Assembly: GCF_036588685.1 (NCBI RefSeq)
Contig: NC_086380.1
Location: forward strand, 4,898,001-4,962,000
DNA length: 64,000 nt
Direction: 5' to 3'
From: Mytilus trossulus
Taxonomy: Eukaryota
Position 1 is the stretch's first letter; each line of letters starts with the position of its first letter. The position numbers and the translations under genes were made by a program. Below, one piece after another: positions 3,137 through 64,000 of the stretch. Below the pieces are notes generated by a model. The model did not search any database and had not been told where the DNA came from. It worked only from the letters and a program-made list of their open reading frames with translations.

Positions 3137-5344
3137 TCACTGTTCATTGATTAGAAATGCCGAAAACATGCTATAGTGCCTTCCTAACATATTTTCTCCG
3201 GACTTGTTGTCGTGTTTTATGTAGATTGTTTCCCCTTCCTCCAGAAGCATTGCACTATTTAGTGTTCCCGAGGAATAATCATGTCCAAATAGTGCGATTG
3301 TGTCTTGGTTGTCCTTGTAGAGACGACAGTGTAAGTTCCTTCCGTCAGCGGACATTAAAGTACCTGATACGAAGTACAATCCGTTTCTTGGAACTGTGAA
3401 CACCCCTGTAGTAGCATCATACCCATTGCCAACATACAGCCATACATGGTCAAATATTATAATTTCATTTGGTTCGGGCCAATCATCTGCACTGAATGAT
3501 GCTGTAAATGCGGGTCTTTCGTGTATTTGTACTGTTTCTACAATAAAATAAAGATAATATTCATATTATAGACGAAACAAAAGAATGCAATTAAAGTGGT
3601 ATAATTACTGACCATTGATTTTCTGCCGAACGAAAAGGAAAAACTTTAGATTCAAAAAGAAAAAAAAGATGTGGTATGCTTTCCAATGAGATAACTCACC
3701 ACAAGAGACCAACATGACACAAATATTAACAACTATAGGTCACCGTACGGAAAAGGCCATACCGCATAGTCAGCTTTAACAGGCCCCGAAATAAAAATGT
3801 TAAACAATTCAAACAGGAAAACTTACAGCCTTATTTATGTAAAAAAAAATTAACGAAAAACAAAGATGTAACACTTAAACAAACGACACCCACTGAATTA
3901 CAGGCTCCTGATTTGGGACAGGCACATATAAACATAATTTGGGGGTGAAACATATAAGCGGGATCAAAACCCTCCCCTAACCTGGGAAAGTGATATGAAA
4001 GTACAACATAAGAACGAACTATAAAAATCAGTTCAAAAAGGCGTAACTCATCAGATGGACAAATATACGAGTGGACGTGGCCGGGTACTTGTACATTCCA
4101 ACAAGGACTTATATATACGTCCCTGATTCCAACAACAAAAAGACACTATGTAAAGATCTTAGAGTACTCATAGTTAATTGACAGCTAGTTCAAAGCAACT
4201 AAAAACTAATAAAAAAAAATCATTCATCTAAGACTAAATTATCAATCCATACACATCCAACTTCCAATAGATTTAGTGTAAAGACGTCATAAACAGTCAT
4301 CAACATGGCCTTGTGCAATGCATAGATACAGGTATCGACTGATTGTAGATTCACAGACAAATGTGTACATGAATATAACATACTAGTAATATTTAGTTTG
4401 TTTTTAATTTACTGATAACAAAATCAATATTTATACCAATAAAAAAATATTCAATGATCTTTTTAGTGTTGAATTGGTAACCTTATAGATTAACCTTATT
4501 TAAAGGAGCGATAAGTTCACCAGGATCATTTATAAATTTCCAGACACAGTTCACAACATTCCCGTTAAAATAAGGATGTGCTATCCTGTTTGAAATAAGT
4601 TTCCTTACAACCAAACTTCATATCAAATCTTTATAAATAAAAATGAAAAAAGTCAGTAAAGGTTTTAAGTATGGTACGAAATCAATATTTTAACAAATAT
4701 CAATCAAAATATAACAGGTACATTTTAAGATTTAGTTACCAAAATATAAAGTGCTCTTAAGTAAAATCGCACAAATACTGAGTTCCAGGCATCAACCTGA
4801 AACGTGTATAGGTTGTTATTCTTAAAAACAGTTTGAAATTAAAATCAAAGATTCTAAGATATTGTTTATACTAGTGTTGAAGACCGTATTATGACCGATT
4901 ATGGTTTACTTTTACAAAAAAAGGAAAATCACACAAATAATGAACTCTGATGAAAACTCAAAACGAAAAGTCCCTATCCAAATGGCAAAAGCAAAAACTG
5001 AAACACATCAAACGAATGGACAAACCCAGTCTAGCGTTGACAACATTGGTTTTTACTGATCACGTTTAAACATTTTATTTACCATATCCAATATCTTCGA
5101 TGACAGCAGTTTTTATAATTGTAATTCTCTGGTCAGAAGCCTCATTAACTGTCTTTATGATAAAGTCCTTTAACACTTGGTTTAGTTTAGTAGTGTCAAA
5201 AAGATCTACTAAAGGCACCTGCTGCGTGTCCAAAAGAGAAACCTCTACTGTAGATTTTTTGTCGGGTTCCTGTGGCAAATTCATTGGTTGAACGCAACCA
5301 ATTAGCATGATAATAAAAAATGAAAACAACTTCGCTTGGTCCAT
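3137..5344 (-). CDS. Secreted C1q-domain-containing protein 1 (220 aa)
   Basis: Exon 1 5344-5083 (signal peptide plus PLVDLFDT motif). Phase-1 GT-AG intron. Exon 2 3537-3137 with gC1q motifs PAFTAS, IIFDHV, GNGYD..TGVFTVPRNGLYFVS, FSAFLI. Frame closes exactly. Confidence 0.93.
3654..4705 (-). mobile_element. Decayed 3' end of a Penelope-like retroelement (repeat family A) in the intron of C1q gene 1
   Basis: 4705-4395 translates, with stops and frameshifts, to ...RKLISNRIAHPYFNGNVVN...ELIAPLNKV..GYQFN...INIDFVISKLKTN*, resembling PLE RT C-termini. The following ~640 bp matches 58080-58710 in reverse complement and many partial copies in the window. Confidence 0.6.
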
Positions 5345-12329: not shown

Positions 12330-13665
12330 TCACTGTTCATTAATAAGATATGCGGAAAACATGCTATAGTGCCTTCCCAGCATTGTTTCTTCGGCGTTGT
12401 TGTCGTGTTTTATGTAGATTGTTTCCCCTTCCTCCAGAAGCATTACACTATGTAGTGTTCCCGGGGAATAATCATGTCCAAATAGTCCGAATATGACTTG
12501 ATTGTTCTTAATGAGATGACAGTGTAAATTCATTCCTGCAGCGGACATGAAAGTGCCTGATACGAAGTACAATCCGTTTCTTGGAACTGTAAATACGCCT
12601 GTAATCGAATTATATGTATTGCCCACATTTAGCCATACTTGGTCAAATATTATTGTTTCTCTTGGTTTGGGATAAATATCTGTCTTCAATGATGCTGTAA
12701 ATGCAGGTCTTTCGTGTATTTGTCCAGTTTCTATATAAAAATAAAGATTATATTCACAGAACAAATGGATAGTTCTCAAATGACATAAAAGTGGTACAAG
12801 TCGGCTTCTGACCGCACGAAAAGGAATTACTGATTCCAGAAAGTCGAACCTTACAATATTACTCGGATTAAAAATGTTTGGCTTTGAGCGTTCCTGATGA
12901 AGGTAAATCCAGAAAAGCGCGTCGCACGCATTAAATTATTAAACGTGTTGTTCTCAATTATTTTTTTTATTATCATTACATTACAAACTTTGTTTTATGA
13001 TTACACTAATTAAGGAGCATTCTAAAAACATGACGTGAATATTAAAAAAGCAGTGTGGAACAGTCCATACTTAAGTCAGGTGATGAATATTATAATTTTA
13101 CTAAAACTTTGTCCACCCTTTTTAACATTTAAAAAAAAAATTAAGATTCCAAACATATTTTACCAAGTATCAATCGATACAAAAAGGAAAATCTAACACT
13201 AGATTTTCAAGATGAAGCTACCAAAACATTAAGTGTTCTTACGTAAAATCGTAAAAATACTGAACGCAAAGGAAAATTCAAAACGAAAAATCCCAAATCA
13301 AATAGCAATATCAAAACTTCAACATTCAAAAACGAATGGACAAACCCAAGTTTAGCGTTGACAACATTGTTTTTTACTGATTATGTTTAAACATTTTACT
13401 TACCATATCCAATATCTTCGATGACTGCCGTTTTTATCATTGGAACTCTCTGGTCAGTAGCCTCCTTAACTGTCTTTATGATATAGTCCTTCAACACATG
13501 GTTTAGTTTAGAAGTGTCAAAAAGAGCTACCAAAGGCATCTGCTGATTGTCCAAAAGGGAAACCTCTACCGTAGAGTTTTTGTCGGGATCCTGTGATCCA
13601 TTCATTGATTGAACGTAACTAATTAGCATGATCATCAAGAATAGATATAGGATCGTTTGGTCCAT
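12330..13665 (-). CDS. Secreted C1q-domain-containing protein 2 (220 aa)
   Basis: Exon 1 13665-13404 (MDQTILYLFLMIMLISYVQS...), phase-1 intron, exon 2 12730-12330 with a complete gC1q domain. Closest paralogue of gene 1 (identical exon sizes, 262+401 nt). Confidence 0.93.
12888..12929 (+). ncRNA. Degenerate type I hammerhead ribozyme, family H2 (intronic, antisense to C1q gene 2)
   Basis: GCGTTC-CTGATGA(12894-12900)-AGGTAAATCCA-GAAA(12912-12915)-AGCGC-GTC-GCACGC, with mismatches in stems I and III. A 3' remnant of the same family (CTTCGGACGCA...) is at ~22695. Confidence 0.55.
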
Positions 13666-13785
13666 TTTGAATTTAAACCAATATGTACAATAGAAAACCC
13701 GCCTTGAACGTGTTCCTCTCGTCACTAACGTGTTTAAGGTTGTTGATATCGTGCCTATGAGTGGCCGTTCATGTCATTTGCGCGA

Positions 13786-14070
13786 TTATATACGCGTATA
13801 TAATTTTCAACGCGTATATATACGCGTATATTGTGGTTTTCAACGCGTATATTGTGGTTTTCAACGCGTATATTGTGGTTTTCAACGCGTATATTATCGT
13901 TTTATACGCGTATATTGTTAAAATAAACACGTTTATACTTTATTCCAATTTATTTATCATATACGCGTTAATATACGCGTTATTTGCATAAATATACGCG
14001 TTAATATACGCGTTAATATACGCGTTATTTGTGTTAATATACGCGTAAGAAATCATTATATACGCGTTAA
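13786..14070. repeat. CpG-rich minisatellite built on the palindromic core ACGCGT
   Basis: Repeated ACGCGTATATTGTGGTTTTCA units, then ATATACGCGTTA units. Confidence 0.85.
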
Positions 14071-14350
14071 TAAACATTCGTTTGTCTTATTGTTTTAACC
14101 AATGAAAGCTGCGTTCTTAAACTGGTTTGTATTTTAAAATCAATCGGGTCCAGGACCAATCCAGTATATCTTATCAAAATCCTTCGTTTTTAATTCAATT
14201 TTCTATGTGCATACAACTAGAATAATTAAAGATGATAAATATATATTTCCGATTATTTAATATATTTTTTCAGCATTTGTTTTCGTATTTTTCTAGATAT
14301 ACACAATTGCATGTTTGTAGTTTAATAATTATTGTGTCTGTATTGAAAAA

Positions 14351-14477
14351 AGGTGTTTCGGTTATGGTCATGTTGACCTAGGCTTATCCTCGTCAGGTAT
14401 CCCTAGCCTATTTGTTTCTTCCTTTGTAATATGTAGAATAGTTTAAATTTGATTTCTCTTATTGGGATACGACACCT
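14351..14477 (-). ncRNA. Type III hammerhead ribozyme
   Basis: Minus strand: AGGTGTC / GTATCCC / 60-nt loop / GGGATAC / CTGACGA / stem II / GAAACACCT. Stem I is 7 perfect bp, stem III is 6 perfect bp, and the core is intact. Predicted GUC cleavage between 14471 and 14470. Confidence 0.88.
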
Positions 14478-14603
14478 GTTATACGTTTTAGTTCGTTTCT
14501 TTCTTTTTTATGTTTCATCTGTTATTTTGTTATTTATTTCTCTTCTAATATTTTAGCAGTGTTAAAATTTAATATGTGTGATATTTTTATCTTTTATTTG
14601 ATT

Positions 14604-15339
14604 TTAAATTATCACACTATTTTCTATTTTAGAATTCGTTAAATATTCTTTTAGATTTCTATGTTTTTTGTACGCAATAATTGGTGGTTTTGGAAACATC
14701 GTTTTAGTATTCCTGTTTTGTTCGATTAGGTGCCAATGTTTCCTTAACGCTCTTCCGATTCCTTTAAATGCTGGGTTAAATCTAGTTGCAAAAACGAGTG
14801 GTGGAGCCGCTTTCTTATTTTTATAATTGTATTTCAAAGTTTGTTTCCTTTCTCGTTTTGTTGTATTAGTTATAATGTTGTCAATCTCATTTTCGTAATG
14901 TCCTCTTTTAAGAAGTTTAGACTTAAAAAACTGGACTTCTCTATTGAAGTCATTTATGTTATTGCAAGATCTTCTAAAACGAATAATTTCTGCAGTAATA
15001 AATTCTTTGAAATTATTCGTTTTAGAAGATCTTGCAATAACATAAATGACTTCAATAGAGAAGTCCAGTTTTTTAAGTCTAAACTTCTTAAAAGAGGACA
15101 TTACGAAAATGAGATTGACAACATTATAACTAATACAACAAAACGAGAAAGGAAACAAACTTTGAAATACAATTATAAAAATAAGAAAGCGGCTCCACCA
15201 CTCGTTTTTGCAACTAGATTTAACCCAGCATTTAAAGGAATCGGAAGAGCGTTAAGGAAACATTGGCACCTAATCGAACAAAACAGGAATACTAAAACGA
15301 TGTTTCCAAAACCACCAATTATTGCGTACAAAAAACATA
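14604..15339 (-). mobile_element. Penelope-like retroelement RT C-terminal fragment with fold-back inversion
   Basis: Translates FITAEIIRFRRSCNN...LLKRG...PLVFATRFNP...LRKHWHLIEQ...FPKPPIIAYKKHRNLKEYL, a PLE thumb/linker-type signature. Arms 14660-14990 and 15009-15339 are reverse complements, which is why the ORF track shows the same peptide on both strands. Confidence 0.8.
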
Positions 15340-18039
15340 AGGGGGGTCATTAAAAAAACTATCTGAATTAAGTTTTTTATCCTACATTGAACTTTTGATG
15401 TTGTCCCTAATGTGTTGTCCTCTTGAAGAAATGAATTCATTAGGCAAGAAGTTTAAAAATTGAGGTTTTACACTTAAGATAATTGAAATCGCATACTTTA
15501 AGAAAGAAGATTTGATGAAGCACTTGTCAGAAAAGAGAATACGTCCTGTTTATATAACATATTTTGATGCTAACAGTTACTACACCTTACCGAAAATACT
15601 GATTATTTTCTTTCAAATGAGTGAAAAATTCGACTTCCAATAAAAATGTTGCTATGCATAATATTGTAGCCTTAATTCAGGTACTGTGTTGATTCTTTTC
15701 CATCAAAATGTGTTTCCTGCAGTCAATTCACATATACAGGAACAATGAGACGTGGAACGATTGCCTATGAGATAACTATCCACCAAAGTTCAAATGAAGT
15801 GGTTGTAAGCAATTATAGGCAACCATATGGCCTTCAACAATGTGAAAACCTCTTACCATATAGTCGGCTATTAAAAATTTCCACCTAAGAGAAATATTAA
15901 ACAATTAAATTGAGGAAACTTAGGGCTTAATCTATAACTAAACAATTACAAAAAGACTCAGGACAGACACACTAGTCTCTCCATACAATGATTGACAATA
16001 TTTTCTTGTAAGAATAGTTTTGTGTTTTGATTTTCGGCAAAGACAGTTATATGTAAAGTTTCAATGTTCTCTTATAATACAGGTAAATCTTATAGCCGAA
16101 CGTGTGAGGCTGTATAACCAGTCAAGGTAAATACAAATTACCATTATCGTGTATCTTATTTGTCGACTTTAAATGATTTCATAACAAGATAAGAGATCAT
16201 TTAAATTGCATAATCTAGTAAAGGAGATGCATTATAAGTGTTCACTGTTGATGATATGTATGATATGTACTTTGCATACGTGAGAATAACCTCCGTTATA
16301 CAACCCACTCTAAGTACTATAAGTTTTTACTAGACCTAAACATTATTATCCGAATGCTGGTTGTTTGCATCTAAAAAGGAGAAAAAAAACATACTATTAG
16401 TGTTTACTGTTGATGAAGTGTATGACATGTACTTTATATAAGTAAGAACAACCTTCGTTATAAAACTCACTATATGGAAGTTTTTACTAGACCTAAGCGT
16501 AAATATCCGGTTGCTGGTTGTTTTAATCTATATAGGAGAAAACCATGCTATCCGATAACAAATACATGCATGTCTAGTGACAACTATAATAGTACATTAA
16601 TCTAGGGAGTGTATAGATTGTTATTCTTCAAACAGTTTGAAATTAAAATCAAAGATTCCAGGCTTATATCGATTAGAATGCTGAAGGCCGTACTGTAACC
16701 TATCATGGTTAAATTTTATGAATTGTTACTTCGATTAAGATTTGTCGCATTGGCACTCATATCACATGTTCTTTATATATTTATTATTATTGTGTACGTA
16801 AGAACGTCCAGTGGGAGAGAAGGCCTGTTACGATGAATGCCACACATTTGATCGTTAGGAAGCTCTTGCAACAACTCTCTAATGAGTCATTGTGCTCCCT
16901 GTTGTACGACAACTGTAGGAAGCATACAATAAGGCATTACTCAGTCTTTGAAGTCGAAAAAATAGTATTATTTAGGTTATGTTTCAAATTGTACTCGTGA
17001 GTACAAAAATTTCAGCAAAAAATTAAACCTTTATTTTTTCATTACAAATTTTATTTATTACACTATTAGTTATTACTTTATGATATGGTACAAAAATCAA
17101 CCCAAAAGATCGATTCGGTTTGACCCCAGATGACTTTTAAAGTTTTAAAATGTTTATATCATTGAAAAGGCTCTAAATTATCTCCCTTTGGTGCAAAAAT
17201 GCAATTTTTTGGCTTTAAATTTGAAATATCTTTTTTAACTCATCAGTGACCAATATTGTTTATCATTGTTTTCAAATAAGCTGTACATAAACTAAATAAT
17301 TGTAAAATTTAAGCGATTTCTTATATAAGGTTATTTTTTATTTCGAAATTACCTCAATTTCGCCTATTAGTTCAACAGAAAAAAAGGACATTAACAAATA
17401 GTATGCTTCTTGCGGAGTCAGATTGTGAGCTTAAATGAACGGTGACCCCATTTTTTTATTTTCTTTTTCTTTTAAGTATATGATAAAGTTTATTTATAAA
17501 AAGATATAGCAAAATCCTTAATTACTTCGATGAATAAACAGGAAGATAGAATCTGCCACAACCTTTCAAAAAAACAATCCGTTGTGATTTAACTAAGATG
17601 CAAAACAAATTGAAGATAAGTAGTGAACCAAGATATCATCCTTCTACTTTACCACCTTTGTAAAAGACATCTATTAGCGAATATATTAATGGGTAAAGTC
17701 TTAGATGGTTCAAATTAAAAGTGTCTCTAGTCTTGAAATGATTATCTGTAGATTATATTTCGTTGTTCATATCTTTTTCAAGGCGATTATATTTAATTAA
17801 TTAATTAACCGGTGCAATAAAATCACAGTACTAGACCTTCTTCTTTCTATCCTTATTCTAAATACTTCATGTTGCATCAAATGAAAAATGTGTGTTTAGT
17901 TCTCGTCCTGATTATAGGTGGAATATTTAGCTCTAAACGTTAGGCAAGTGCCAATCAGTCAATCAATCAAGGTGGAAAATACCGGATATTTTTTTTTGTA
18001 TTTAAACATAGCTTGTGTAGATCATATTTTTACCACGTA

Positions 18040-28295: not shown

Positions 28296-31200
28296 GATTG
28301 CCGATGTTATGGATGACGTAGATTACAAAACAATCAATTTCAACATAGAGGAAGCAGAATTCAGACACCCGTTATGGCTAACAGAATCACATTTTGTTTA
28401 TAACCTCTATAGAGACGATGAAGGTCATCTGAACTGTCATAGAAATGCTGCAGGCGATCCTATTCTTTCACCTAGGTACGTATAGTTCAATAACAACTAA
28501 TCCTCCAGTATAAACCTATTATAATGCTTTTTTTTTGTAGAACTGGTAATCGGATATACCAATTTAATACAAACATTTTAGTTACTTTTTTAGCTCTTGG
28601 TATTGTGTGGTTTTTTTTTGAAAATCAGAAATAAATTTAATATTAAACCTTGTATGTCAAACCTTATTGACAATGTTTTGATATATTGATAAAAATGGTA
28701 TTGCATACTCCGTATCGTGTGTTCTCTGTCACATTCTATTTATTGTAGCACACTTACAAATATTTGAAATAATTATTATTTAATAATTATTATTTAAATA
28801 TATAAATAAGTAATATTGTTGATTTGTTTTTATTGCAAAAATTTGCCACTGATAAATGCAAGTATTATATACTTTTTTTTTTAATTTCCAGACCATTGGC
28901 AAAAATGTGCATGAATGAGCTAGTCTGTGAAGGGAACCAAATATCAGTATTTGAAACAGACGCTATTCCAGCTGATCTGTATCCAAAATTGCTGGCGGAG
29001 GCCATTTTTCAACGACAATTGCAGACTATTGACTTTTTAGTATCAACATGGCCACACTCCATCCTAGATCTTCAAAGTGTTATGCCAAAGGAAGACCTAG
29101 TGGAAGCTCAACTGCTGACGATACCAATAGAGGGACATGACGGGATAACGTTTTTGGACTGTATAATGTGTGGACTTCTTAGACAAAAGTATTCTTCGAG
29201 ATTGAGAACAGTAAACCTATCTGGATTCAAACAAGGCAAACCATTTTTTTTTATTGAGACCAAACAACAACATATCTTATTTTCATAGTCCTCCTTCGCT
29301 GCTGTTTTTGCTTATTCTCGTGTCTTCCTATTTACCTCCATTCTATCGCGCGTTCTTCTTTCGATCAGCCTCGTTTCGATGAAAGCGGGACAAACGATAC
29401 CAGTTGAAAGTGTCATCCAAACTCTGAAATCAAAAATAAACTAACAACACCATGGCTAAAAAAAGACATACAGACAAACAACCAATAGTACATAAAAAAT
29501 ACATAGAAAAATAATTACTAAGTAAAATTAATCCAATCAAATTCTGGCCAGGGGTCATGTCTCGTGCTCCGGAAGAGAAAACAGTTCCTGCTCCACATGT
29601 TGCACCAGAAAGAAATGTCATATCAAACAAAGGGAGCTAGACTACAACCAGTAGTATTAGACCCACACAAAGCTATTATTCAGACTATTTTTGAAAATCA
29701 AAAATCTACAACCTTATTTAGTATAAAATTTCGTTGCAGATCGCACGCTTTGTCGTGATATCTGCCGTCTTCCATTATTGTGGATGCCACCCGCAGAAAG
29801 AGATACTGAAAAGATTTACGACATTTTATCACAAACTATAGGTAAGTATATCCTACAAATCTTGTTTACTTAAGAATTTTAAAAATAGGTTTTTAGTAAA
29901 TGAAAGAATAACTTAATTTGCATTTGATACACGTATGTTCCTACATTCTGTAGATAGTTGATACTTATATTTTGAATTAAACAATGGTATACTTATGCTG
30001 TTCCAATCCCCCATGCAGAGTTATCGGTCCTTTCTATCTCTCTGCATAGGAGATTGTACGTTTTCGTCCTTTTTATACGTAATAATAGATAGTTAATCAT
30101 TGATACATGATTGATTTAGTTATTATTTGAATAGAACTAGCTTTTAGTAACTGTCTAAATATATCTTTTGCCTTTATGTTAGTTGGTTTGTTTTGTGCTT
30201 TATAACCATATATCGAGTTAAATTGAAAGCAGATGTAGTATGATTGCCCATGAGCTCGAGACAACTCTTCACAAGAGACCAAATGACACATAAATCAAAA
30301 AAATATAGTCCACCGTACGGCCTTCAACAATGCGAAAAGCCCATATCGCACAATTAGCTATAACAGACCCGTGTAAAGGACGAAGCTATTTTTAATAGAC
30401 TTTTTTTTTTAACATACTTACTTACTTTAATGATTTAAATTTTCAATTCGAATCTTTAACTTAGTTATTAGTTTGTACCAACGACTACCAAATAATATAA
30501 GTAGATACTAGGTTGTGATGAACGATTTGTTTATCGTTGAAGACCTTCGAACAACATTAATGTTCAATAATAACAAAAAAATCGGTGTTATTTTCGCTAC
30601 ATCCTACTATTTCAAGAGGTTTTTTGTCTAATGTACACCATGCTTATCTTTTTATTTACTATAAATATCTGACGAAGCAGCTGTCGATTGCGTGAGAAAT
30701 ATTTGATATCATTTAAACACAATTATGTAATCATCATTCTTATCTCATATAGCAGATATTCTTCACAATAATTTCACTTTTTATGTTCTAAGCTGAAGTA
30801 TTGATGGAACTATATAACTCAGATGAAGTTTTGAAACGATTTATCACTCAAGTTTGCATTTTTATTATGCAGTAATTTTAGCCATAATATTTCAGATATA
30901 ACTGAAGAAAAGGTGCAGAAATATCTGAACAGAATAAAGTGCATTTATACAACAATGGACGCTCATGTTCCACATGGACACCAATTTCGTATGTTTTATA
31001 CTTTTATTAATACCACAGTAATAAATAAAAATAAAATTGTGTCAACAGTTCAGTTATGTCATTGTTAAGAACATACACAAAACCATTGTTTAATGACTAT
31101 CTTTATGGCATCTTTTATCTATGCAATGCATGATTTTTTTACTCCAGAAAAGTAAAACGAAGAAAATAATCTATCCAATACCAGACAATCTCACACCATA

Positions 31201-34200
31201 TATTTAACTAAATCTGTTATATAAAACCATTGTCGAATGAATCCATACTCGAGTTACACAACAGACGTACTTGTGCAAGAAATTGCTTACCAATTAGGAG
31301 CACTTATGTTCACCTCATGCTAGGTTAACAATTATACTCCTCTTTATTTTTAGCTTGCCTTTCCGTCTTTTCAAAATTTTGGTTAGTACAGTGTTATTGG
31401 TATGGTTTTTATTTGTATCCTCTAATTTTGGTTAGTGCAGTGTAATTGTTATGGTTTTTATTTGTATCCTCTAATTTTGGTTAGTGCAGTGTAATTGTTA
31501 TGGTTTTTATTTGTATCCTCTCATTTTGGTTCGTGCAGTGTTATGGTTTTTATTTGTATCCTCTCATTTTGGTTAGTGCAGTGTAATTGTTATGGTTTTT
31601 ACTTGTATCCTCTAATTTTGGTGAGTGCAGTGTAATTGTTATTGTTTTTATTTGTATCCTCTAATTTTGGTTAGTGCAGTGTAATTGTTATGGTTTTTAT
31701 TTGTATCCTCTAATTTTGATTAGTGCAGTGTAATTGTTATGGTTTGTATTTGTATCCTATAATTTTGGTTAGTGCAGTGTAATTGTTATGGTTTTATTTT
31801 GTATCTTCTAATTTTGGTTAGTGCAGCGTAATTGTTATGGTTTTTATTTGTATCCTCTAATTTTGGTTAGTGCAGTGTAATTGTTATGGTTTTTATTTGT
31901 ATCCTCTAATTTTGGTTAGTGCAGTGTAATTGTTATGGTTTTTATTTGTATCCTCTAATTTTGGTTAGTGCAGTGTAATTGTTATGGTTTTTATTTGTAT
32001 CCTCTAATTTTGGTTAGTGCAGTGTAATTGGTATGGTTTTTATTTGTATCCTCTAATTTTGGTTAGTGCAGTGTAATTGGTATGGTTTTTATTTCTATCC
32101 TCTAATTTTGGTCAGTGCAGTGTTATTGGTATGGTTTTTATTTCTATCCTCTAATTTTGGTTAGTGCAGTGTAATTGTTATGGTTTTTATTTGTATCCTC
32201 TCATTTTGGTTAGTGCAGTGTAATTGTTATGGTTTTTATTTGTATCCTCTCATTTTGGTTCGTGCAGTGTTATTGTTATGGTTTTTATTTGTATCCTCTC
32301 ATTTTGGTTAGTGCAGTGTAATTGTTATGGTTTTTACTTGTATCCTCTAATTTTGGTTAGTGCAGTGTAATTGTTATTGTTTTTATTTGTATCCTCTAAT
32401 TTTGGTTAGTGCAGTGTAATTGTTATGGTTTTTATTTGTATCCTCTAATTTTGATTAGTGCAGTGTAATTGTTATGGTTTGTATTTGTATCCTATAATTT
32501 TGGTTAGTGCAGTGTAATTGTTATGGTTTTATTTCTAATTTTGGTTAGTGCAGCGTAATTGTTATGGTTTTTATTTGTATCCTCTAATTTTGGTTCGTGC
32601 AGTGTAATTGTTATGGTTTTTATTTGTATCCTCTAATTTTGGAAAGTGCGCAGATTTTGTGATAGACTGAGGTAGATATAAGAAGATGCAGTTTAACGCA
32701 AATGAGACAACACTCCATCCAGGTCACAACCTGTAAAAGCAAACATTTATAGGTCACATTATGATCTTCAACACTGAGCCTTGGCTCACATCGAACAGCA
32801 AGCTATAAAGGGCCTACAAATGACTAGTTAAAAACCATTCAAACGAGAAAACCAACCGAGTCTAATCTATATAAAAAAAAAACGAGAAACACTAATGAAC
32901 CACATTAACAAAGGATAACCTATGAACATTAGGTTCCTGATTTAGAACTAGTATGCTATTGTAAAAAGATACGCATATGCAAAGACATCGATAGGGCAAA
33001 TCAAATGGAGGGTCGTACAGCTAGATCTCCGTAGACATTCATCCCAGTAAATAAAAAATACAACAGCATTGAATTTTCATTTTCAATATGTATTTCAGCA
33101 CCAATCACTATTATATTGGACTGTAAAATGACTTTAGACGATGTTCCTATTGGTTTGGCCTTACAGAATGAGACTCCATTCAGATTTGCTTGTCAGAGGC
33201 TGTGGACAGAACGTATAAGTGACGTCAATCTACCATTAAACTTACTACATAGAGTACTGGAACCGAGGGTAAGTAAAACAACAAGTGACGTCAATCTACC
33301 ATTAAACTTTCTACATAGAGTACTGGAACCGAGGGTAAGTAAAACAACAAGTGACGTCAATCTACCATTAAACTTACTACATAGAGTACTGGAACCGAGG
33401 GTAAGTAAACCAACAATTGGTAAAATATAACCTTATTGACTGCTATAGATCTAATGTGTTATGTAATCAAACTCTCTGTTCATTAAGTCAGTTACAAGTA
33501 TTGATCCTCTGTTATGTGGAATACACCAGTCAAAGGGAGTTAATTAAGATAACTTTCTTTTGTTTTATTTTTCGCACTGAATATATATGATATATTTGAC
33601 ATGCACACGTATAAAAATTGCGGTTTTTATCCAACGCAATCATAGGTTTGAACGTAGTTTTCAATTTAGACTCGTATATATATCATATTGAATATCTGTA
33701 ATTTCATGAGTGATTGTGAGGTTTTTATTAATGCGAGTTATGCAACAGCTGCGTATTGCAATAATGAAATAATATATATAAAACATATATTAGTATAAAT
33801 CTTTACTAAAGTTATAATAAATGATATCAATGTCAAAATTGCAATAAGTAATGTTCGCAACAAATATCTGGAATTTACATTAAAAGATCACCAACACAAA
33901 TACGATAATTGAATGAAAGTACAATATGTAATTTATTCCTCAATATCAGGTCAGTACACCATTTTCCCCGTTACCTTTCCTTTAGAAAATGTCCTCGGTT
34001 GCCACATTGTCGAAGTAGTTTGTCTGCAATCATTAATACCATTTCTACTCTGAGGTTGTGAGTACGAATCCCGATCGTATACTGCTCTGGTGTTAGACTC
34101 CTGTCTTAATTGACTGACAAGTGCTCCTAAGAAACGTCTTTGGTTCTCTCAGGATACTCTGATTGCTATGGTATATTCAAGAGCGACCGAAGGAGTATAT

Positions 34201-35206
34201 ACAACACATCACAAACGAACATACATATAATATAATGCATATTTGTTTGCTTTTAAAAAAAATAATTCAAGTTGGATATTTTCGAATTACTAATATTTAG
34301 TTCCGAGCGCCATGCATAGTTTTTATGCATGAAAAAGTGAAATTGCGCCTTGTAACTTCGGCATTTTGTAACTTTTGGAATTATTAAGTTCGTTCCCTAA
34401 ATATTTATTTTCAAATTCCATATTTATAATATTCAATTACATTTTTCACTAGAATAATTGTTTTTCAGGACCTAACTGAACTTGAAATAGAAGACCGAAA
34501 TCTCTGTACAGATGACGACAACATGGAGATTTTACTTGAAGCATTGTCATTGCTACCGAACATAAAATCACTAAGTCTCCCAAATACCATACACAGTAAC
34601 GAAAACGAGGCAGCAGTGAAAGGACTGAACAAAGTACTGAGAACGATGACCAATCTGAAGAAATTAAACTTTCCTCTTTGTAACTTAAAAGATAATTTAC
34701 GTGACCTTTTGACCGGACTGCAGCAGACAATGACGTTTTTGTCGCTTAGAGACTGTCGTCTGTCCGAAGCAGACGTGTTGTTCCTGCTAGAATGGCCGTT
34801 AACACGAGGTTTGTTTGACCTGAATGTAAGCAGAAACAATCTTCGGAATTCATACCAAAGTATTTTATCTCTTTTAGAAAAACTAGAAGAAATCCGATGT
34901 TTTTCATTGTCTTATTGTTGTTTTAGTCCTGCAGAACTAAGAAACATTGTTGAAGTTGCTTCTAAATGTACAAACATTAAAACTCTTGGAATCCAAAGTT
35001 TCACGCCATTATCAGAAGCCGATAGTCAAATGATTTTGAAAGGATGTTGTTTGTTGACAAACCTGCAGAAATGTCTTATGTTACCAGAATGTCACGCCTT
35101 TTTAGGGAGTAATGATTTAGATAGGTTTGATAACAGAGAAAAATATTTGGAATTTTGTGACAACATACTATCAGATTTAAAACGTGATGATATAGAACTT
35201 GAATAA
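28291..35206 (+). CDS. LRRC14: LRRC14/PRAME-family leucine-rich repeat protein (543 aa)
   Basis: Exons 28291-28475, 28892-29235, 29740-29841, 30896-30988, 33099-33268 and 34469-35206 total 1632 nt in one open frame. Family motifs: SPRPLAKMC, IPADLYPKLLAEA, LVSTWP, LDCIMCGL, RLRTVNLSG, plus C-terminal LRRs (LSLRDCRLSEAD, LNVSRNNL). Orthology to LRRC14 itself is not proven. Confidence 0.85.
31374..32642. repeat. 49-bp minisatellite, ~26 copies (intronic)
   Basis: Unit TTTTGGTTAGTGCAGTGTAATTGTTATGGTTTTTATTTGTATCCTCTAA. Confidence 0.95.
33216..33415 (+). repeat. 66-bp x3 repeat spanning an exon-intron boundary
   Basis: AAGTGACGTCAATC...GGAACCGAGG/GTAAGTAAAACAAC three times, giving donors at 33269, 33335 and 33401. 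Confidence 0.95.
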
Positions 35207-51315: not shown

Positions 51316-51517
51316 GCAAGAAAGATCGACCATTTACTCCACCCAAGTCAAAGACGTATCAGGCAAATCGCCAGTGCTTTCTATACATATATTTCAACCA
51401 ATCAAATTCCGAGTTTTGTTTGACAGACTACCACAAATACCCGCGTTTTCTCAGTACATTTTTAATGTTAAGGATTAAATCGACAATTAAAGATCCGATA
51501 AAACAATTACTGACCAT

Positions 51518-51784
51518 ATGTGTATCTGTGAAAAAATTTTGCTGGCTACCTTTGGAATGCAAGAAAACGAAAATGAATCTTTACATGTCTCTTTTGCTAG
51601 AGAACAGGCTATTGTTGAAGTTGCAGCCAGGCTCAGATGTATTGGGGATGATTTGAATAAGCGCTATTCTGCTTCTAAATCTAAGGATGGTTTTCACCCT
51701 TTTCAGAATGCTATTTTGCAGGAGGTTCTTTTGGAAATGAAAAGACATTTTCTACATTTTGCAGGCTATTTACAACCTAAGTGA
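51518..51784 (+). CDS. Putative BH3-only pro-apoptotic Bcl-2-family protein (88 aa)
   Basis: Canonical BH3 motif VAARLRCIGDDLNKRY, with no BH1/BH2 visible. Strong donor AAG/GTACGT 11 nt after the stop (51796), acceptors at 51976/52037, a long AU-rich downstream region and AATAAA at ~53922. Confidence 0.75.
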   Translation: MCICEKILLATFGMQENENESLHVSFAREQAIVEVAARLRCIGDDLNKRYSASKSKDGFHPFQNAILQEVLLEMKRHFLHFAGYLQPK

Positions 51785-55107: not shown

Positions 55108-58100
55108 GTCTTATCGGGGCCTTTTTTTAGCTTACTATATGCGGTATGGGCTTTGCTCATTGTTGAAGGCCGTACGGTGACATATAGTTGTTAATGTTTG
55201 TGTCATTTTGGTCTTTTTTGGATAGATGTCTCATTGGCAATCATACCACATCTTCTTTTTTATATGTCTCGTCTACTTATTTTTCTAATTGATATATATC
55301 TTGTCCCTCCGTAATTATATCCAAGGTTGCATACACAGAGATTAAAAAGAAGATAGGCTTTTTATGAAACAAAATTTCATCTCAAATGTATAACGGCAAC
55401 AGTTAAGATATCGCACGGCGTAAAGACGGGCCAATTGTCTTCTGACGGTCGGTATCTTCAGCCATTCAATTGTTACTTAAACACATTATTGGCAACAAAT
55501 TCTCGAGTTGAACTTTCTAACTTTCTAGTCCCCTTTATTCAAAATGACCCACTTTGCAGTAAAATGAACTTACTCTATAAATTAATTATAAATTTAAACT
55601 CGTCCCCGATTTGCATGAAATATTTGCCGCTGAATGAAAAAAAAAATATCAGTAGACGAATCATTTTGTTTGTCTCCACACAGTAACATTGTGCTACTGG
55701 GTCGGAAAAACATAACGCGATCAATCATAATAACTTCAAATAAATTAATTATGTTTATGACGTCTTTACACTAAATCCATTGGATGTTGGATGTGTACGG
55801 ATTGATAGTTTAGTCGAAATTGCATGATTTATTTATTAGTTGTAAGTGGCTTTGAACTAGCTGTCAGATAACTGCGAGTACTCTCAGATCTGTTCATAGT
55901 GTCTTATCGGGGCCTTTTATATTTGACTATATGCGGTATGGGCTTTACTCATTGTTGAAGGCCGTACGGTGACATATAGTTGTTAATGTTTGTGTCATTT
56001 TGGTCTTTTTTGGATAGTTGTCTCATTGGCAATCATACCACATCTTCTTTTGTATATGTCCCATCTTCTTATTTTTCTAATTGATATATATCTTGTCCCT
56101 CCGTAATTATATCCAAGAGATTAAAAAGAAGATAGGCTTTTTATGAAACAAAATTTCATCTCAAACAGTTAAGATATCGCACGGCGTAAAGATGGGCCAA
56201 TTGTCCTCAGACGGTCGGTATCTTCAGCCATGCAATTGTTACTTAAACACATTATTGGCAACAAATTCTCGAGTTGAACTTTCTAACTTTCTAGTCCCCT
56301 TTATCCAAAATGACCCACTTTGCAGTAAATTGAACTTACTGTATATATTAATTGTAAATTTGAACTCGTCCCCGATTTGCATGAAATATTTGCCGCTGAA
56401 TGAAAAAAAAAATATCAGTAGACGAATCAATTTGTTTGCCTCCACACAGTAACATTGTGCTACTGGGTCGGAAAAACATAACGCGATCAATCATAATAAC
56501 TTCAAATAAATTAATTATGTTTATGACGTCTTTACACTAAATCCATTGGATGTTGGATGTGTACGGATTGATAGTTTATTCTTAAATGCATGATTTATTT
56601 ATTAGTTGTAAGTGGCTTTGAACTAGCTGTCAGATAACTGCGAGCACTCTCAGATCTGTTCATTGTGTCTTATCGGGGCCTTTTATATTTGACTATATGC
56701 GGTATGGGCTTTGCTCATTGTTGAAGGCCGTACGGTGACATATAGTTGTTAATGTTTGTGTCATTTTGGTCTTTTTTGGATAGTTGTCTCATTGGCAATC
56801 ATACCACATCTTCTTTTTTATATGTCCCATCTTCTTATTTTTCTAATTGATATATATCTTGTCCCTCCGTAATTATATCCAAGGTTGCATACACAGAGAT
56901 TAAAAAGAAGATAGGCTTTTTATGAAACAAAATTTCATCTCAAATGTATAACAGTTAAGATATCGCACGGCGTAAAAATGGGCCAATTGTCTTCTGACGG
57001 TCGGTATCTTCAGCCATGCAATTGTTACTTAAACACATTATTGGCAACAAATTCTCGAGTTGAACTTTCTAACTTTCTAGTCCCTTTTATCCAAAATTAC
57101 CCACTTTGCAGTAAATTGAACTTACTGTATATATTAATTGTAAATTTGAACTCGTCCCCGATTTGCATGAAATATTTGCCGCTGAATGATAAAAAAAATA
57201 TCAGTAGACGAATCATTTTGTTTGTCTCCACACAGTAACATTGTGCTACTGGGTCGGAAAAACATAACGCGATCAATCATAATAACTTTAAATAAATTAA
57301 TTATGTTTATGACGTCTTTACACTAAATCCATTGGATGTTGGATGTGTACGGATTGATAGTTTATTCTTAAATGCATGATTTATTAATTAGTTGTAAGTG
57401 GCTTTGAACTAGCTGTCAGATAACTGCGAGCACTCTCAGATCTGTTCATTGTGTCTTATCGGGGCCTTTTATATCTGACTATATGCGTTATGGGCTTTGC
57501 TCATTGTTGAAGGCCGTACGGTGACATATAGTTGTTAATGTTTGTGTCATTTTGGTCTTTTTTGGATAGTTGTCTCATTGGCAATCATACCACATCTTCT
57601 TTTTTATATGTCCCATCTTCTTATTTTTCTAATTGATATATATCTTGTCCCTCCGTAATTATATCCAAGGTTGCATACACAGAGATTAAAAAGAAGATAG
57701 GCTTTTTATGAAACAAAATTTCATCTCAAATGTATAACGGCAACAGTTAAGATATCGCACGGCGTAAAGATGGGCCAATTGTCTTCTGACGTTCGGTATC
57801 TTCAGCCATGCAATTGTTACTTAAACACATTATTGGCAACAAATTCTCGAGTTGAACTTTCTAACTTTCTAGTCCCCTTTATCCAAAATGACCCACTTTG
57901 CAGTAAATTGAACTTATTGTATATATTAATTGTAAATTTGAACTCGTCCCCGATTTGCATGAAATATTTGCCGCTGAATGAAAAAAAAAAATATCAGTAG
58001 ACGAATCATTTTGTTTGCCTCCACACAGTAACATTGTGCTACTGGGTCGGAAAAACATAACGCGATCAATCATAATAAAATTATGTTTATGACGTCTTTA

Positions 58101-58235
58101 CACTAAATCCATTGGATGTTGGATGTGTACGGATTGATAGTTTAGTCTTAAATGCATGCTTGATTTATTAGTTGTAAGTGGCTTTGAACTAGCTGTCAGA
58201 TAACTGCGAGTACTCTCAGATCTGTTCATTGTGTC
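55108..58235. repeat. ~770-790-bp tandem repeat x4
   Basis: GTCTTATCGGGGCC at 55108, 55901, 56667 and 57453. The units are near identical. Confidence 0.95.
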
Positions 58236-58710
58236 TTTTTGTGGCGGGATGTATAAGTACGCAGCCACGTCCACTTGTATGTTTGTCCATCTGATGAATA
58301 AAGCCTTTTTCAACTGATTTTTATAGTTCGTTCTTATGTTGTACTGTTATACCACTGTCCCAGGTTAGGGGGAGGGTTGGAATCCCGCTAACATGTTTAA
58401 CCCCGCCACATTATTTATGTATGTGCCTCTCCCAAGTCAGGAGCCTGTAATTTCAGTGGTTGTCGTTTGTTTATGTGTTACATATTTGTTTTTTGTTCAT
58501 TTTTTTTTACATAAATAAGGCCGTTAGTTTTCTTGTTTGAATTGTTTTACATTGTCTTATCGGGGCCCTTTATAGCTGACTATGCGGTATGGGCTTTGTT
58601 CATTGTTGAAGGCCGTACGGTGACCTATAGTCGTTAATGTCTGTGCCGTCATTTTGGTCTTTTGTGGATAGTTTACTCATTGGCAATCATACCACATCTT
58701 CTTTTTTATA
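58080..58710 (+). mobile_element. Repeat family A, long copy
   Basis: Reverse complement of 3654-4295; ends CACATCTTCTTTTTTATAT. Confidence 0.8.
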
Positions 58711-59167
58711 TTAACATCGTCTCGATAGTATCGTGGTTGAGTGTTCGCTAGTGCACGGGTGCTGTCTGAGGTTGGTTCGATCCCTGTCAAGTCATTAAAA
58801 AATGGAGACTGATATTTGAATTATTTAAGGCATACTCGGCAGAAATATTGCCTTGCGAAAAGTAAAGTCATAAAAATACAAAACTCTGAAGAAAATTCAA
58901 AACGGGAATATAAAAAAGAAGATGTGGTATGATTGCCAATGAGACATCTATCCACAAAAGACCAAAATGACACAGACATTAAAAACTATGGGTCACTGTA
59001 CGTCTTCAACAATGAGCAAAGCCCATACCGAATAGTCAGCTATAAAAGTCCATAATCAAATAACAAAATCAACACTCACACACATAAAACGAAAAGATAT
59101 AACAACTGTTATAGTCCTGACTTGATACAGATTTTTTACTAAACCTGTCAATGGTATGGCAGTCGCA

Positions 59168-62803: not shown

Positions 62804-63395
62804 TCATTTTCGCAATTCTAATGATTGCTTTATAAAGTCACCAATTTCTGTCAAAAGCTCAGATTTAGGATTTAAAAGTTGTTTAAGCTTTAAAAGTGGT
62901 TGATAATTTGTAAAATCAGAATTTAAATTATTAATCTTTAGAAATAAGCAATCTCTTAAAGTTGAATTTAGTTTGCAGTATAGTAAAAAATGGTATTCAT
63001 CATCAATTTTATTACAAAGTTTACATAACCTTTGATCTCTGGGTACATTTTTATATCTTCCCATTTCAACTTCTAGGTTATGGTCACTAACCCTTAATTT
63101 AGAAATTAATTGTCTGGTTTTAAAATTTGATTCTTTTTATAAATAATTTTCAATTTTTATCTCAGTTCTTATTTGACCATATAGAAATAATTTCGAACTG
63201 TCTGTTATAGAAGAAAGTTTATTCAAGACTTTTTTTGTATAAGATTCATGTGATACCTGTTTAAACTTCATCTTTAAGGAATATTTAATTTTATTGTATG
63301 GTTTATCACAAGTTTCAAAATCTTTAGCATTTAATCCAGTCTCTTTAAAAATATTTAGAGCAAATGTATACCAACTATGAAAACCATCAATAATA
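62804..63395 (-). mobile_element. LINE ORF2 C-terminus with CCHC zinc knuckle (RTE-X-like), inactivated
   Basis: ...RQLISKLRVSDHNLEVEMGRY...RLCKLCNKIDDEYHFLLYC. In-frame stop at 63139-63137. Truncated on its 5' side by another repeat from ~63405. Confidence 0.8.
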
Positions 63396-63406
63396 TAGTT
63401 CACCGT

Positions 63407-64000
63407 AAGGCCCTTTAGGTGGTATGGGAGTCTAAAATAAAAATGATAGAATTTGTTCATACTTTGCCGAAACGTAGTATATATTGATATATGTTGAAAA
63501 TTAAATAAAAATGAGAGGACACCGCGCATTTTCTCGAGCTACAGAACGTGACAAAATGACACATTTTGTATGGATTATACAGGAAAAAACACCATTTTTG
63601 GATTAGAAACTAAACAAAATGATAGAATTGTTTTAAAATATTTAAGGAAAAGATAGCTTTCAGACAATGCTTTGAGAATATCAAAAGAAAAGATAGGGTC
63701 ACTGTACGTTTTCCCCGGCTAAAATACAAGATAGGAAAATTCCATGTAGATTCTTTCCGAAAATGCACTGTTTTAGAGTTACCTCCCCTTAAAATGCCAA
63801 TTTAAAACAAAAATAAAAACAACCAAAATTAATCAACATTTGCAAAAATATTAATATTTATAAGTTATTTTCTTATAAATTTGGTCCTTTAAATGAAAAT
63901 TCACATTAAATATCTGCGTTATTGCATCAAATATTTGCTGACTTGATAGAAAAAATCTAGACCTTTGGTTCTCTGTTTTTTTACAATCCAAGATGGAGGA
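63407..64000. mobile_element. Probable non-autonomous DNA transposon, left part
   Basis: Abrupt junction with the LINE; terminus TTTAGGTGGTATGGGAGTC. The right end lies outside the window. Confidence 0.4.

Follow-up and report, generated by a model that had tools for sequence, protein, structure and literature searches.

A Penelope-like element fragment joined to its own inverted copy in a Mytilus trossulus C1q gene cluster: probable self-priming, a candidate RT-only parent lineage and a predicted type III hammerhead

We find that a 64,000-nt stretch of Mytilus trossulus DNA (hereafter the window) holds a long palindrome built from a Penelope-like element (PLE). In the reading that we favor and hold to be probable, the 3′ fragment of a PLE became joined head-to-head to its own inverted copy through snap-back self-priming, and its parent reverse transcriptase (RT) lineage lacks an endonuclease (EN) in the open reading frame (ORF) and carries a predicted type III hammerhead. 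This reading builds on direct observations: the two arms, a frame that continues across the spacer, an ORF that stops after the thumb, the family membership and the base-pairing potential of the hammerhead. The palindrome itself is ordinary, head-to-head palindromic junctions having already been described as a PLE by-product (PMC3846280, PMC8557442). What is added to this known kind of palindrome is an RT-only clade and a predicted long-loop, pseudoknotted hammerhead; an earlier reading of the locus (the original prediction) overlooked both the missing endonuclease and the hammerhead.

The palindrome, its family and its setting

A repeat search over the whole 64,000-nt window, which contains 0 N, bears out the original prediction of two 331-bp arms without differences around an 18-nt spacer. 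The inverted-repeat arms, at 14660-14990 and 15009-15339, are 331 nt each and 100% complementary, and the 18-nt spacer lies at 14991-15008. Among the 127 inverted pairs that the search gave, none is longer than the palindrome; the runner-up measures 170 nt at 84%. The features of the insertion and its surroundings are as follows.

14660..14990, minus strand: left arm, PLE ORF in its original orientation, thumb region (repeat search, translation, protein match)
14991..15008, minus strand: 18-nt spacer, the 5′-most bases kept from the element and its point of 5′ truncation and fold-back (main family contigs depart at 15008)
15009..15339, plus strand: right arm, derived inverted copy that ends within the ORF and lacks the element 3′ tail (repeat search, translation)
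14604..15008, minus strand: end of an RT-only PLE ORF (C-terminal ~134 aa), with its stop soon after the thumb (protein match, frame scan)
13757..14129, no strand assigned: left flank, a repeat from a different family that shows high depth and contains TA/CG-rich tandem units, start approximate (tandem-repeat list, public contigs)
15340..15410, no strand assigned: right flank, a piece of a very high-depth repeat (public contigs)
12330..13665, minus strand: neighboring C1q-domain gene, with its ATG at 13665 and a C1q exon within 12330-12935 (Pfam, cluster layout)

The minus-strand frame reads FKEFITAEIIRFRR across the spacer (FKEFITAE) and continues beyond the left arm until a stop codon at 14606-14604. 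The fragment in the window matches the Mytilus edulis protein P0001 (FKGFITAEIIRFRR) with 94% identity over 135 aa, and the 90% cluster of P0001 has six members, each named M. edulis. The frame kept through the spacer and the match to P0001 therefore identify the plus arm, which ends at 15339 inside the ORF, as the derived copy, in agreement with the original prediction. That prediction also saw a PLE reverse-transcriptase fragment; the PLE assignment stands, and the part of the RT protein represented is the thumb and C-terminus, not the catalytic core. The minus-strand piece spans 15008 to about 14134 and is the 3′ part of a PLE. In the insertion as a whole, the final ~875 nt of the element are joined to an inverted copy, 331 nt long, of their 5′-most part.

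Contigs related to the left-flank repeat run beyond 14129 into different sequence. No target-site duplication longer than 6 nt was found between the two boundaries; matches of 5-6 nt, either A/T-rich or GGGTC, were considered and rejected as not credible. The palindrome lies ~1 kb upstream of the C1q-gene ATG at 13665 and sits between two same-strand C1q-domain genes, Pfam recognizing C1q in both exons scanned. We infer the exon pairing of the gene at 12330..13665 from the repeated layout of the cluster. No telomeric array occurs among the 33 tandem-repeat rows in the window, and the copy is interstitial, inside the C1q gene cluster.

Other parts of the window were noted in passing. About five secreted C1q-domain genes stand in tandem at 3137-26557 (minus strand); their first exon carries the signal peptide/coiled coil and their last exon the C1q domain. 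At 28806-35206 (plus strand) lie exons of a leucine-rich-repeat gene that look PRAME/LRRC14-like by eye, the exon scanned having no Pfam match. An exon-like ORF at 51491-51784 (plus strand), likewise with no Pfam match, holds an LxxIGDxL stretch that resembles the BH3 motif consensus and may belong to a BH3-only or Bcl-2 family gene. Four head-to-tail units of ~790 bp with an inverted partial copy (58908-59002) occupy 55170-59002 and are related to repeats at 3660-4295 and 15750-15930. A 3′ fragment at 62804-63538 (minus strand) resembles, by eye, the C-terminus of a LINE-type ORF2, with a cysteine/histidine motif.

Public contigs from four of the 24 listed runs were mapped on window 13400-16400. 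In run X1, the unique flanks on both sides have a depth of ~50 and 0 differences, while depth, which is not equal to copy number, reaches 280-480 across the ORF part, ~2900 across 14309-14510 and ~5700 at 14177. Family contigs cover 14186-14469, 14235-14442, 14451-14782 and 14719-15008. The two main ones cease to match the window at 15008 and extend from there for another 126 and 990 letters into upstream element, and one diverged contig matches as far as 15011.

The original prediction named a fold-back sequencing artefact as the way in which it could fail. The flanks match exactly in X1, and no contig in the four runs crosses the hairpin tip (depth 0 at 15016-15116). An artefact, whether a fold-back or inverted chimeric read or a polishing step that homogenized the arms, would account for their perfection and for X1 contigs that match the flanks exactly yet include neither a tip-spanning contig nor the private alleles of this copy. 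Contigs drop rare repeat variants, however, so that an absence is uninformative; as the X1 contigs also lack the private alleles, the missing tip-spanning contig may reflect pruning. Moreover, the arm is short and gives way to unique host sequence that preserves the same-strand C1q gene array, and the arrangement is known as a biological one. We consider an artefact quite unlikely.

A predicted hammerhead and the element 3′ tail

Two further features lie on the sense strand of the element, downstream of the ORF.

14477..14351, minus strand: predicted type III hammerhead (descriptor search, pairing check, contig conservation)
14134..14350, minus strand: remaining 3′ tail, pLTR-like, the element end near 14130-14137 being approximate (public contigs, folding)

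The predicted hammerhead lies 133 nt past the ORF stop codon. Stem III (14477-14472/14356-14351) has 6 bp, with predicted cleavage after C14471, and stem I (14470-14464/14403-14397) has 7 bp and a 60-nt loop I. The core at 14396-14390 is followed by a stem II of 2 bp plus a 5-bp hairpin (14378-14374/14370-14366), and a 6-bp pseudoknot (14410-14405/14384-14379) would connect loop I with the stem II region. Every pair is Watson-Crick. The CUGAnGA / GAAA / UH core, together with closed stems I and II and an open stem III, places the motif in type III.

A generic hammerhead descriptor, composed after the motif had been spotted by eye, gives this single match when both strands of the window are searched, versus 0 in 200 order-2 Markov simulations. 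Rfam reports no hammerhead over 13700-15800 or 14100-14600. Its 47 sub-threshold matches in the former interval, mostly miRNA hairpin models on the tip and on TA-rich repeats, were rejected as generic hairpins, and the single match in the latter was judged to be due to chance. Stems I and III appear in the minimum-energy fold, whose stability is no better than that of shuffles (z = -1.2).

The public contigs show an island of conservation here. Contigs with unrelated flanks match solely 14347-14475 (X1) and 14348-14480 (X14). The changes listed come from 40 substitution rows out of 200 and from 12 indel rows out of 20. All six that fall within 14392-14444 lie outside paired or core positions (chance ~0.02), one of them occupying the free N7 position; the seventh is an insertion (14374) that makes the accessory hairpin shorter. 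No compensatory pair in the stems is found among these listed variants.

The pairing predicts a hammerhead that acts as a monomer and cleaves transcripts of the element 133 nt past their stop codon. According to PMC11167929, the one PLE studied in vitro shows an internal RT start on uncleaved RNA and a protein-assisted hammerhead. The insertion described here keeps ~340 nt beyond the predicted cut site, which agrees with reverse transcription starting internally on uncleaved RNA, as in that work.

Published PLE hammerheads, as far as the available texts describe them, are of type I, and in metazoans they are minimal and dimeric (PMC4209133). The hammerhead table of PMC8557442 lists no motif other than type I, and the Mytilus retrozymes belong to the same type (PMC7229834; 10.64898/2026.07.22.740005). 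The window motif resembles those of metazoan PLEs (PMC4209133) and Mytilus retrozymes (PMC7229834) in that the core sits in a PLE 3′ tail and hammerhead sequences outnumber ORF copies. In contrast to their tiny palindromic stem III, thought to act as a dimer, the window motif is of type III, with stems of 6-7 bp, and predicted to be monomeric. Pseudoknots are a known hammerhead contact: in PMC3088659, a pseudoknot between loop I and stem II enhances activity and is present in all three types and in ~40% of representatives, and it recurs in the window motif. Plants and prokaryotes account for most genomic type III motifs (PMC6155905), and those of plant LTR retrozymes are type III like the window motif, with none tied to an animal PLE in the sources at hand. 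Our literature search found no type III hammerhead in an animal PLE, an absence that is weak because Repbase and subscription journals lay outside its coverage.

Beyond the hammerhead, the 3′ end of the element carries a motif near 14134-14215 that reaches high depth and includes an 11-nt near-palindrome. This motif may be an RT-recognition/initiation signal common to non-autonomous relatives. PLEs are marked by tandem pLTRs and a 30-40 bp tail, and the window holds a single truncated copy. Two joints in X1 contigs, 14411 to 14137 and 14240 to 14134, point to an element end near 14134-14137 and hint at tandem tails elsewhere. We note that the X1 joints link the 14134-14215 motif to the hammerhead at varying spacing, in tandem. 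Folding of the tail at 14100-14345 gave no convincing ribozyme structure.

An RT-only lineage of Penelope-like elements

Membership of the PLEs is supported at several levels. The alignment of relatives shows a telomerase-like RT with GxKF, DKx, KxHK, RT core and thumb motifs, and the window fragment has 48% identity to the full-length relative P0002 (666 aa). Pfam detects RVT_1 in the relatives and does not recognize the 135-aa window fragment. The top nine fold matches of an AlphaFold model of P0002 (pLDDT 90.7) are telomerase RTs, while the ESM Atlas returned generic RT/DUF8422/HTH clusters only. The window copy also displays the PLE trait of a 5′ truncation with an adjoining inverted copy.

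The C-terminal GIY-YIG endonuclease of canonical EN+ PLEs (Penelope/Poseidon, Neptune, Nematis, Hydra) is, by contrast, missing from the window ORF, and no GIY-YIG is present downstream of the stop at 14606-14604 in the three sense frames. Relatives were taken as the 150 best hits of P0002, the set P0002-P0153 amounting to 152 proteins. The KxHK..RP spacing could be parsed in 133 of the 152, and 38 have an insert of at least 20 aa there. None of these 38 long-insert proteins has a GIY-YIG motif, which is found in 49 of the 95 short-insert proteins. All long-insert proteins that reach the end of the thumb (28/28) stop within 35 aa. The full-length ones (n=18) measure 612-704 aa, begin with Met and have 18-121 residues before GxKF. 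The 54 matches of at least 780 aa include none with a parsed long insert; the sole one above 35% identity is a gene-model chimera fused to cadherin exons.

A FastTree phylogeny of 123 sequences groups these proteins. It contains the 122 of 152 proteins that pass a coverage filter (30 omitted) together with P0154, an M. edulis family member that stands for the window family; the tree is midpoint-rooted, without named reference clades, and leaves out the metagenomic locus L001 described below. The tree places P0154 within a clade of 28 tips (support 1.0), in which 27 tips lack an EN tail and one is undetermined. Among 23 proteins scanned with Pfam, those that belong to this clade show no GIY-YIG. 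The species named in the 20 clusters looked up are Mytilus edulis, Pinctada imbricata and Saccostrea echinata. In the P0007 cluster (Pinctada imbricata), 10 of the 14 listed named members lie on one 115-Mb contig, which suggests local amplification of the RT-only family. On the evidence of these predicted proteins, the parent lineage appears to be a telomerase-like RT of ~645 aa without an endonuclease in its ORF.

A missing C-terminal GIY-YIG would already be explained if the element were a Naiad, or another PLE with an N-terminal or detached endonuclease. According to their description, Naiads end after the RT and abound in Mytilus, and the EN-RT contact can be lost through a frameshift in the KR-rich block; the long-insert proteins start with a KR-rich block. 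Indeed, Naiad_Mgal and Naiad_Mcor share with the window lineage an ORF that ends after the RT, bivalve hosts and a KR-rich block before the RT. However, the described Naiads have an N-terminal EN, CxC, DKA and an IFD, whereas the window clade is without EN, CxC and IFD: the full-length long-insert proteins start with Met in 18/18 cases, have CxC before GxKF in 0/18, DKA in 1/18 and DKN in 12/18, and the motif A-B spacing, 63 residues versus 58 in an EN+ control, shows no IFD of ~20 aa. Naiads are also ~1010 aa long and, in the text available, without canonical hammerheads, in contrast to the ~645 aa and predicted hammerhead of the window lineage. Six short motifs of the window element are absent from a supplement with Naiad, Chlamys and Hydra sequences. 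We therefore regard an identity with Naiad or a similar PLE as distinctly improbable.

Loss of EN in PLE offshoots is described as not unusual (PMC8557442). The EN-deficient Athena and Coprina and the EN-less offshoots MjPLE01 (shrimp) and PLE-X (Selaginella, Chara) likewise combine a telomerase-like RT without GIY-YIG with a hammerhead near the 3′ end, as far as the texts at hand report. Athena and Coprina attach to telomeric repeats, whereas the window copy lies inside a gene cluster. The literature search, which did not extend to Repbase and subscription journals and whose negative outcome is accordingly weak, yielded no account of this RT-only clade.

Relatives were also sought outside the protein databases. 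A metagenome scan yielded 10 loci, of which L001 alone is clearly near the clade: its ORF also ends after the thumb, with 43% identity to P0007 versus 30% to the EN+ control. L001:109-241 holds a hammerhead of type I whose stem III has 10 bp, with an 8-bp hairpin in a long loop and a 5-bp pseudoknot. It lies upstream of the truncated 5′ end of an RT-only PLE and is the sole type I match in the 10 loci. The lineage may thus be characterized by hammerheads that are large and pseudoknotted but vary in topology. Two viral protein scans, one viral pattern scan and a first GTDB scan gave no relatives, and a second GTDB scan gave one locus, an EN+ PLE contaminant. L011, a whole contig of a Poribacteria MAG, carries an intact-looking EN+ PLE and a minimal hammerhead-like core near position 173, and is likely a eukaryotic contaminant.

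A broader reading of these data, which we offer tentatively and with more doubt than confidence, is that the window copy belongs to an unnamed, widespread invertebrate clade of RT-only PLEs. Such a clade would be EN-free, would spread intrachromosomally and independently of telomeres, and would carry monomer-active pseudoknotted hammerheads (type III, and type I in the relative) that standard searches miss. Its elements would integrate at breaks by self-priming, and the palindrome would be a snapshot of normal second-strand synthesis.

Origin of the palindrome and its significance

In the proposed mechanism, reverse transcription would begin near 14134, pass through the hammerhead region and stop at 15008; since it would pass through that region, the template would have been an uncleaved, multimeric or circular RNA. 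The truncated cDNA end would then fold back over 18 bases and prime on itself with a putative 0-4 bp of microhomology; the two main family contigs end their match at 15008, and one diverged contig alone extends to 15011. The self-primed strand would copy 331 bases and then join to host DNA. A slightly decayed copy, mobilized in trans, probably served as the template. For their integration, elements of the parent lineage would use nicks or breaks that already exist or would depend on a borrowed endonuclease, and integration without an endonuclease of its own fits the missing target-site duplication.

Several observations support a fold-back. The inverted arm duplicates the adjoining 331 nt, begins at a distance of 18 nt from where the element is truncated and has no 3′ tail, family contigs depart at the tip at 15008, and unique host sequence lies on either side. 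Two independent insertions fit this arrangement worse than snap-back, as the inverted arm duplicates adjacent sequence and comes without a 3′ tail. Twin priming of the L1 type inverts upstream sequence without duplicating it; it was rejected on the grounds that an inversion without duplication would be expected and 331 nt are duplicated here. The right arm may formerly have been longer.

The original prediction stated that 5′ inversions are frequent in PLE insertions. According to PMC8557442, inverted 5′-truncated copies beside the 5′ end are typical for PLEs. Palindromic head-to-head junctions have been read as self-priming, the authors favoring an antisense RNA template (PMC3846280). Adineta vaga Pen2a and Pen3a (PMC3846280) and the PLE scheme of PMC8557442 offer close parallels, with an inverted 5′-truncated copy at the 5′ end, a junction palindrome, proposed self-priming and a target-site duplication that is sometimes absent. 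In those cases a pLTR usually forms the inverted copy, or the copy extends to the 3′ end, and the elements carry EN, whereas the window arm is pure ORF that stops 331 nt out and the window lineage has no EN in its ORF.

The timing of the duplication is less simple than the original prediction of a very recent template-switch product: the fold-back origin fits, but recency does not follow. Three X1 family contigs differ from the window copy at 8/696 positions. The arm changes relative to the family majority, at 14665, 14930 and 14931, are each present in both arms, and three of four examined changes are non-synonymous. With 0 differences in 331, the divergence between the arms is bounded below about 0.9%. 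For a copy at 1.1% divergence, ~7.6 arm-arm differences would be expected if the changes arose after insertion, the probability of none being ~5e-4. The changes common to both arms therefore indicate that the arms were copied from an already diverged template or were homogenized later, and arm identity therefore does not date the insertion. Judged from sequence comparison, either the donor was already decayed, or the inverted arm is younger than the insertion, or the arms have been converted.

The second and third of these options correspond to an element that inserted and decayed, the inverted arm being added later by a host fork template switch or break-induced fold-back with 5′ deletion, or the arms being gene-converted. 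The three shared changes, with the low probability of perfect arms, speak for such a later event, as do the missing target-site duplication and flanks formed by different repeats. The changes, being mostly non-synonymous, look as expected for post-insertion decay, which would place the duplication after the insertion. Yet a decayed donor mobilized in trans would give the same pattern, the excess depth of the hammerhead region over the ORF in X1 (~2900 versus 280-480) suggests non-autonomous relatives, and this architecture recurs in PLEs (PMC3846280). We consequently judge a later host event rather unlikely and retain snap-back self-priming as the preferred reading.

Finally, the original prediction envisaged read-through dsRNA and a cruciform that promotes rearrangement of the cluster. 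A transcript across the palindrome would indeed give a 331-bp duplex, a potential source of siRNA or a substrate for ADAR or RIG-I-like receptors (the computed fold of the arms as a DNA hairpin is -399 kcal/mol), the palindrome lies amid two same-strand C1q-domain genes, and rotifer PLE copies yield small RNAs (PMC3846280). Against such a role, run X14, taken to be RNA merely by guess, shows a depth of zero from 14511 to 15318 and hence over the arms, the minus strand holds six AATAAA from the last exon of the upstream gene to the palindrome, and the arms target the element alone and no host genes. For turnover of the C1q cluster by cruciform extrusion there is evidence in neither direction, no sign of selection or of rearrangement at the tip having been found. 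A functional hairpin RNA or cruciform is thus very improbable, and the window copy is dead, without demonstrated function.

In sum, the palindrome alone is a known by-product of small importance, and the interest of the locus lies in what surrounds it. The hammerhead result suggests that long-loop descriptors of type I and type III be applied afresh to 'HHR_half_core' entries and to PLE families regarded as hammerhead-negative. A monomer-competent hammerhead would ease tests of the role of PLE hammerheads, compared with the weak dimeric or protein-assisted motifs studied so far (PMC4209133, PMC11167929). If the lineage is truly endonuclease-free and yet dispersed and multi-copy, it would depart from the published general restriction of EN-minus PLEs to chromosome ends, and would provide a compact (~645 aa) telomerase-like RT for the study of nuclease-independent integration.
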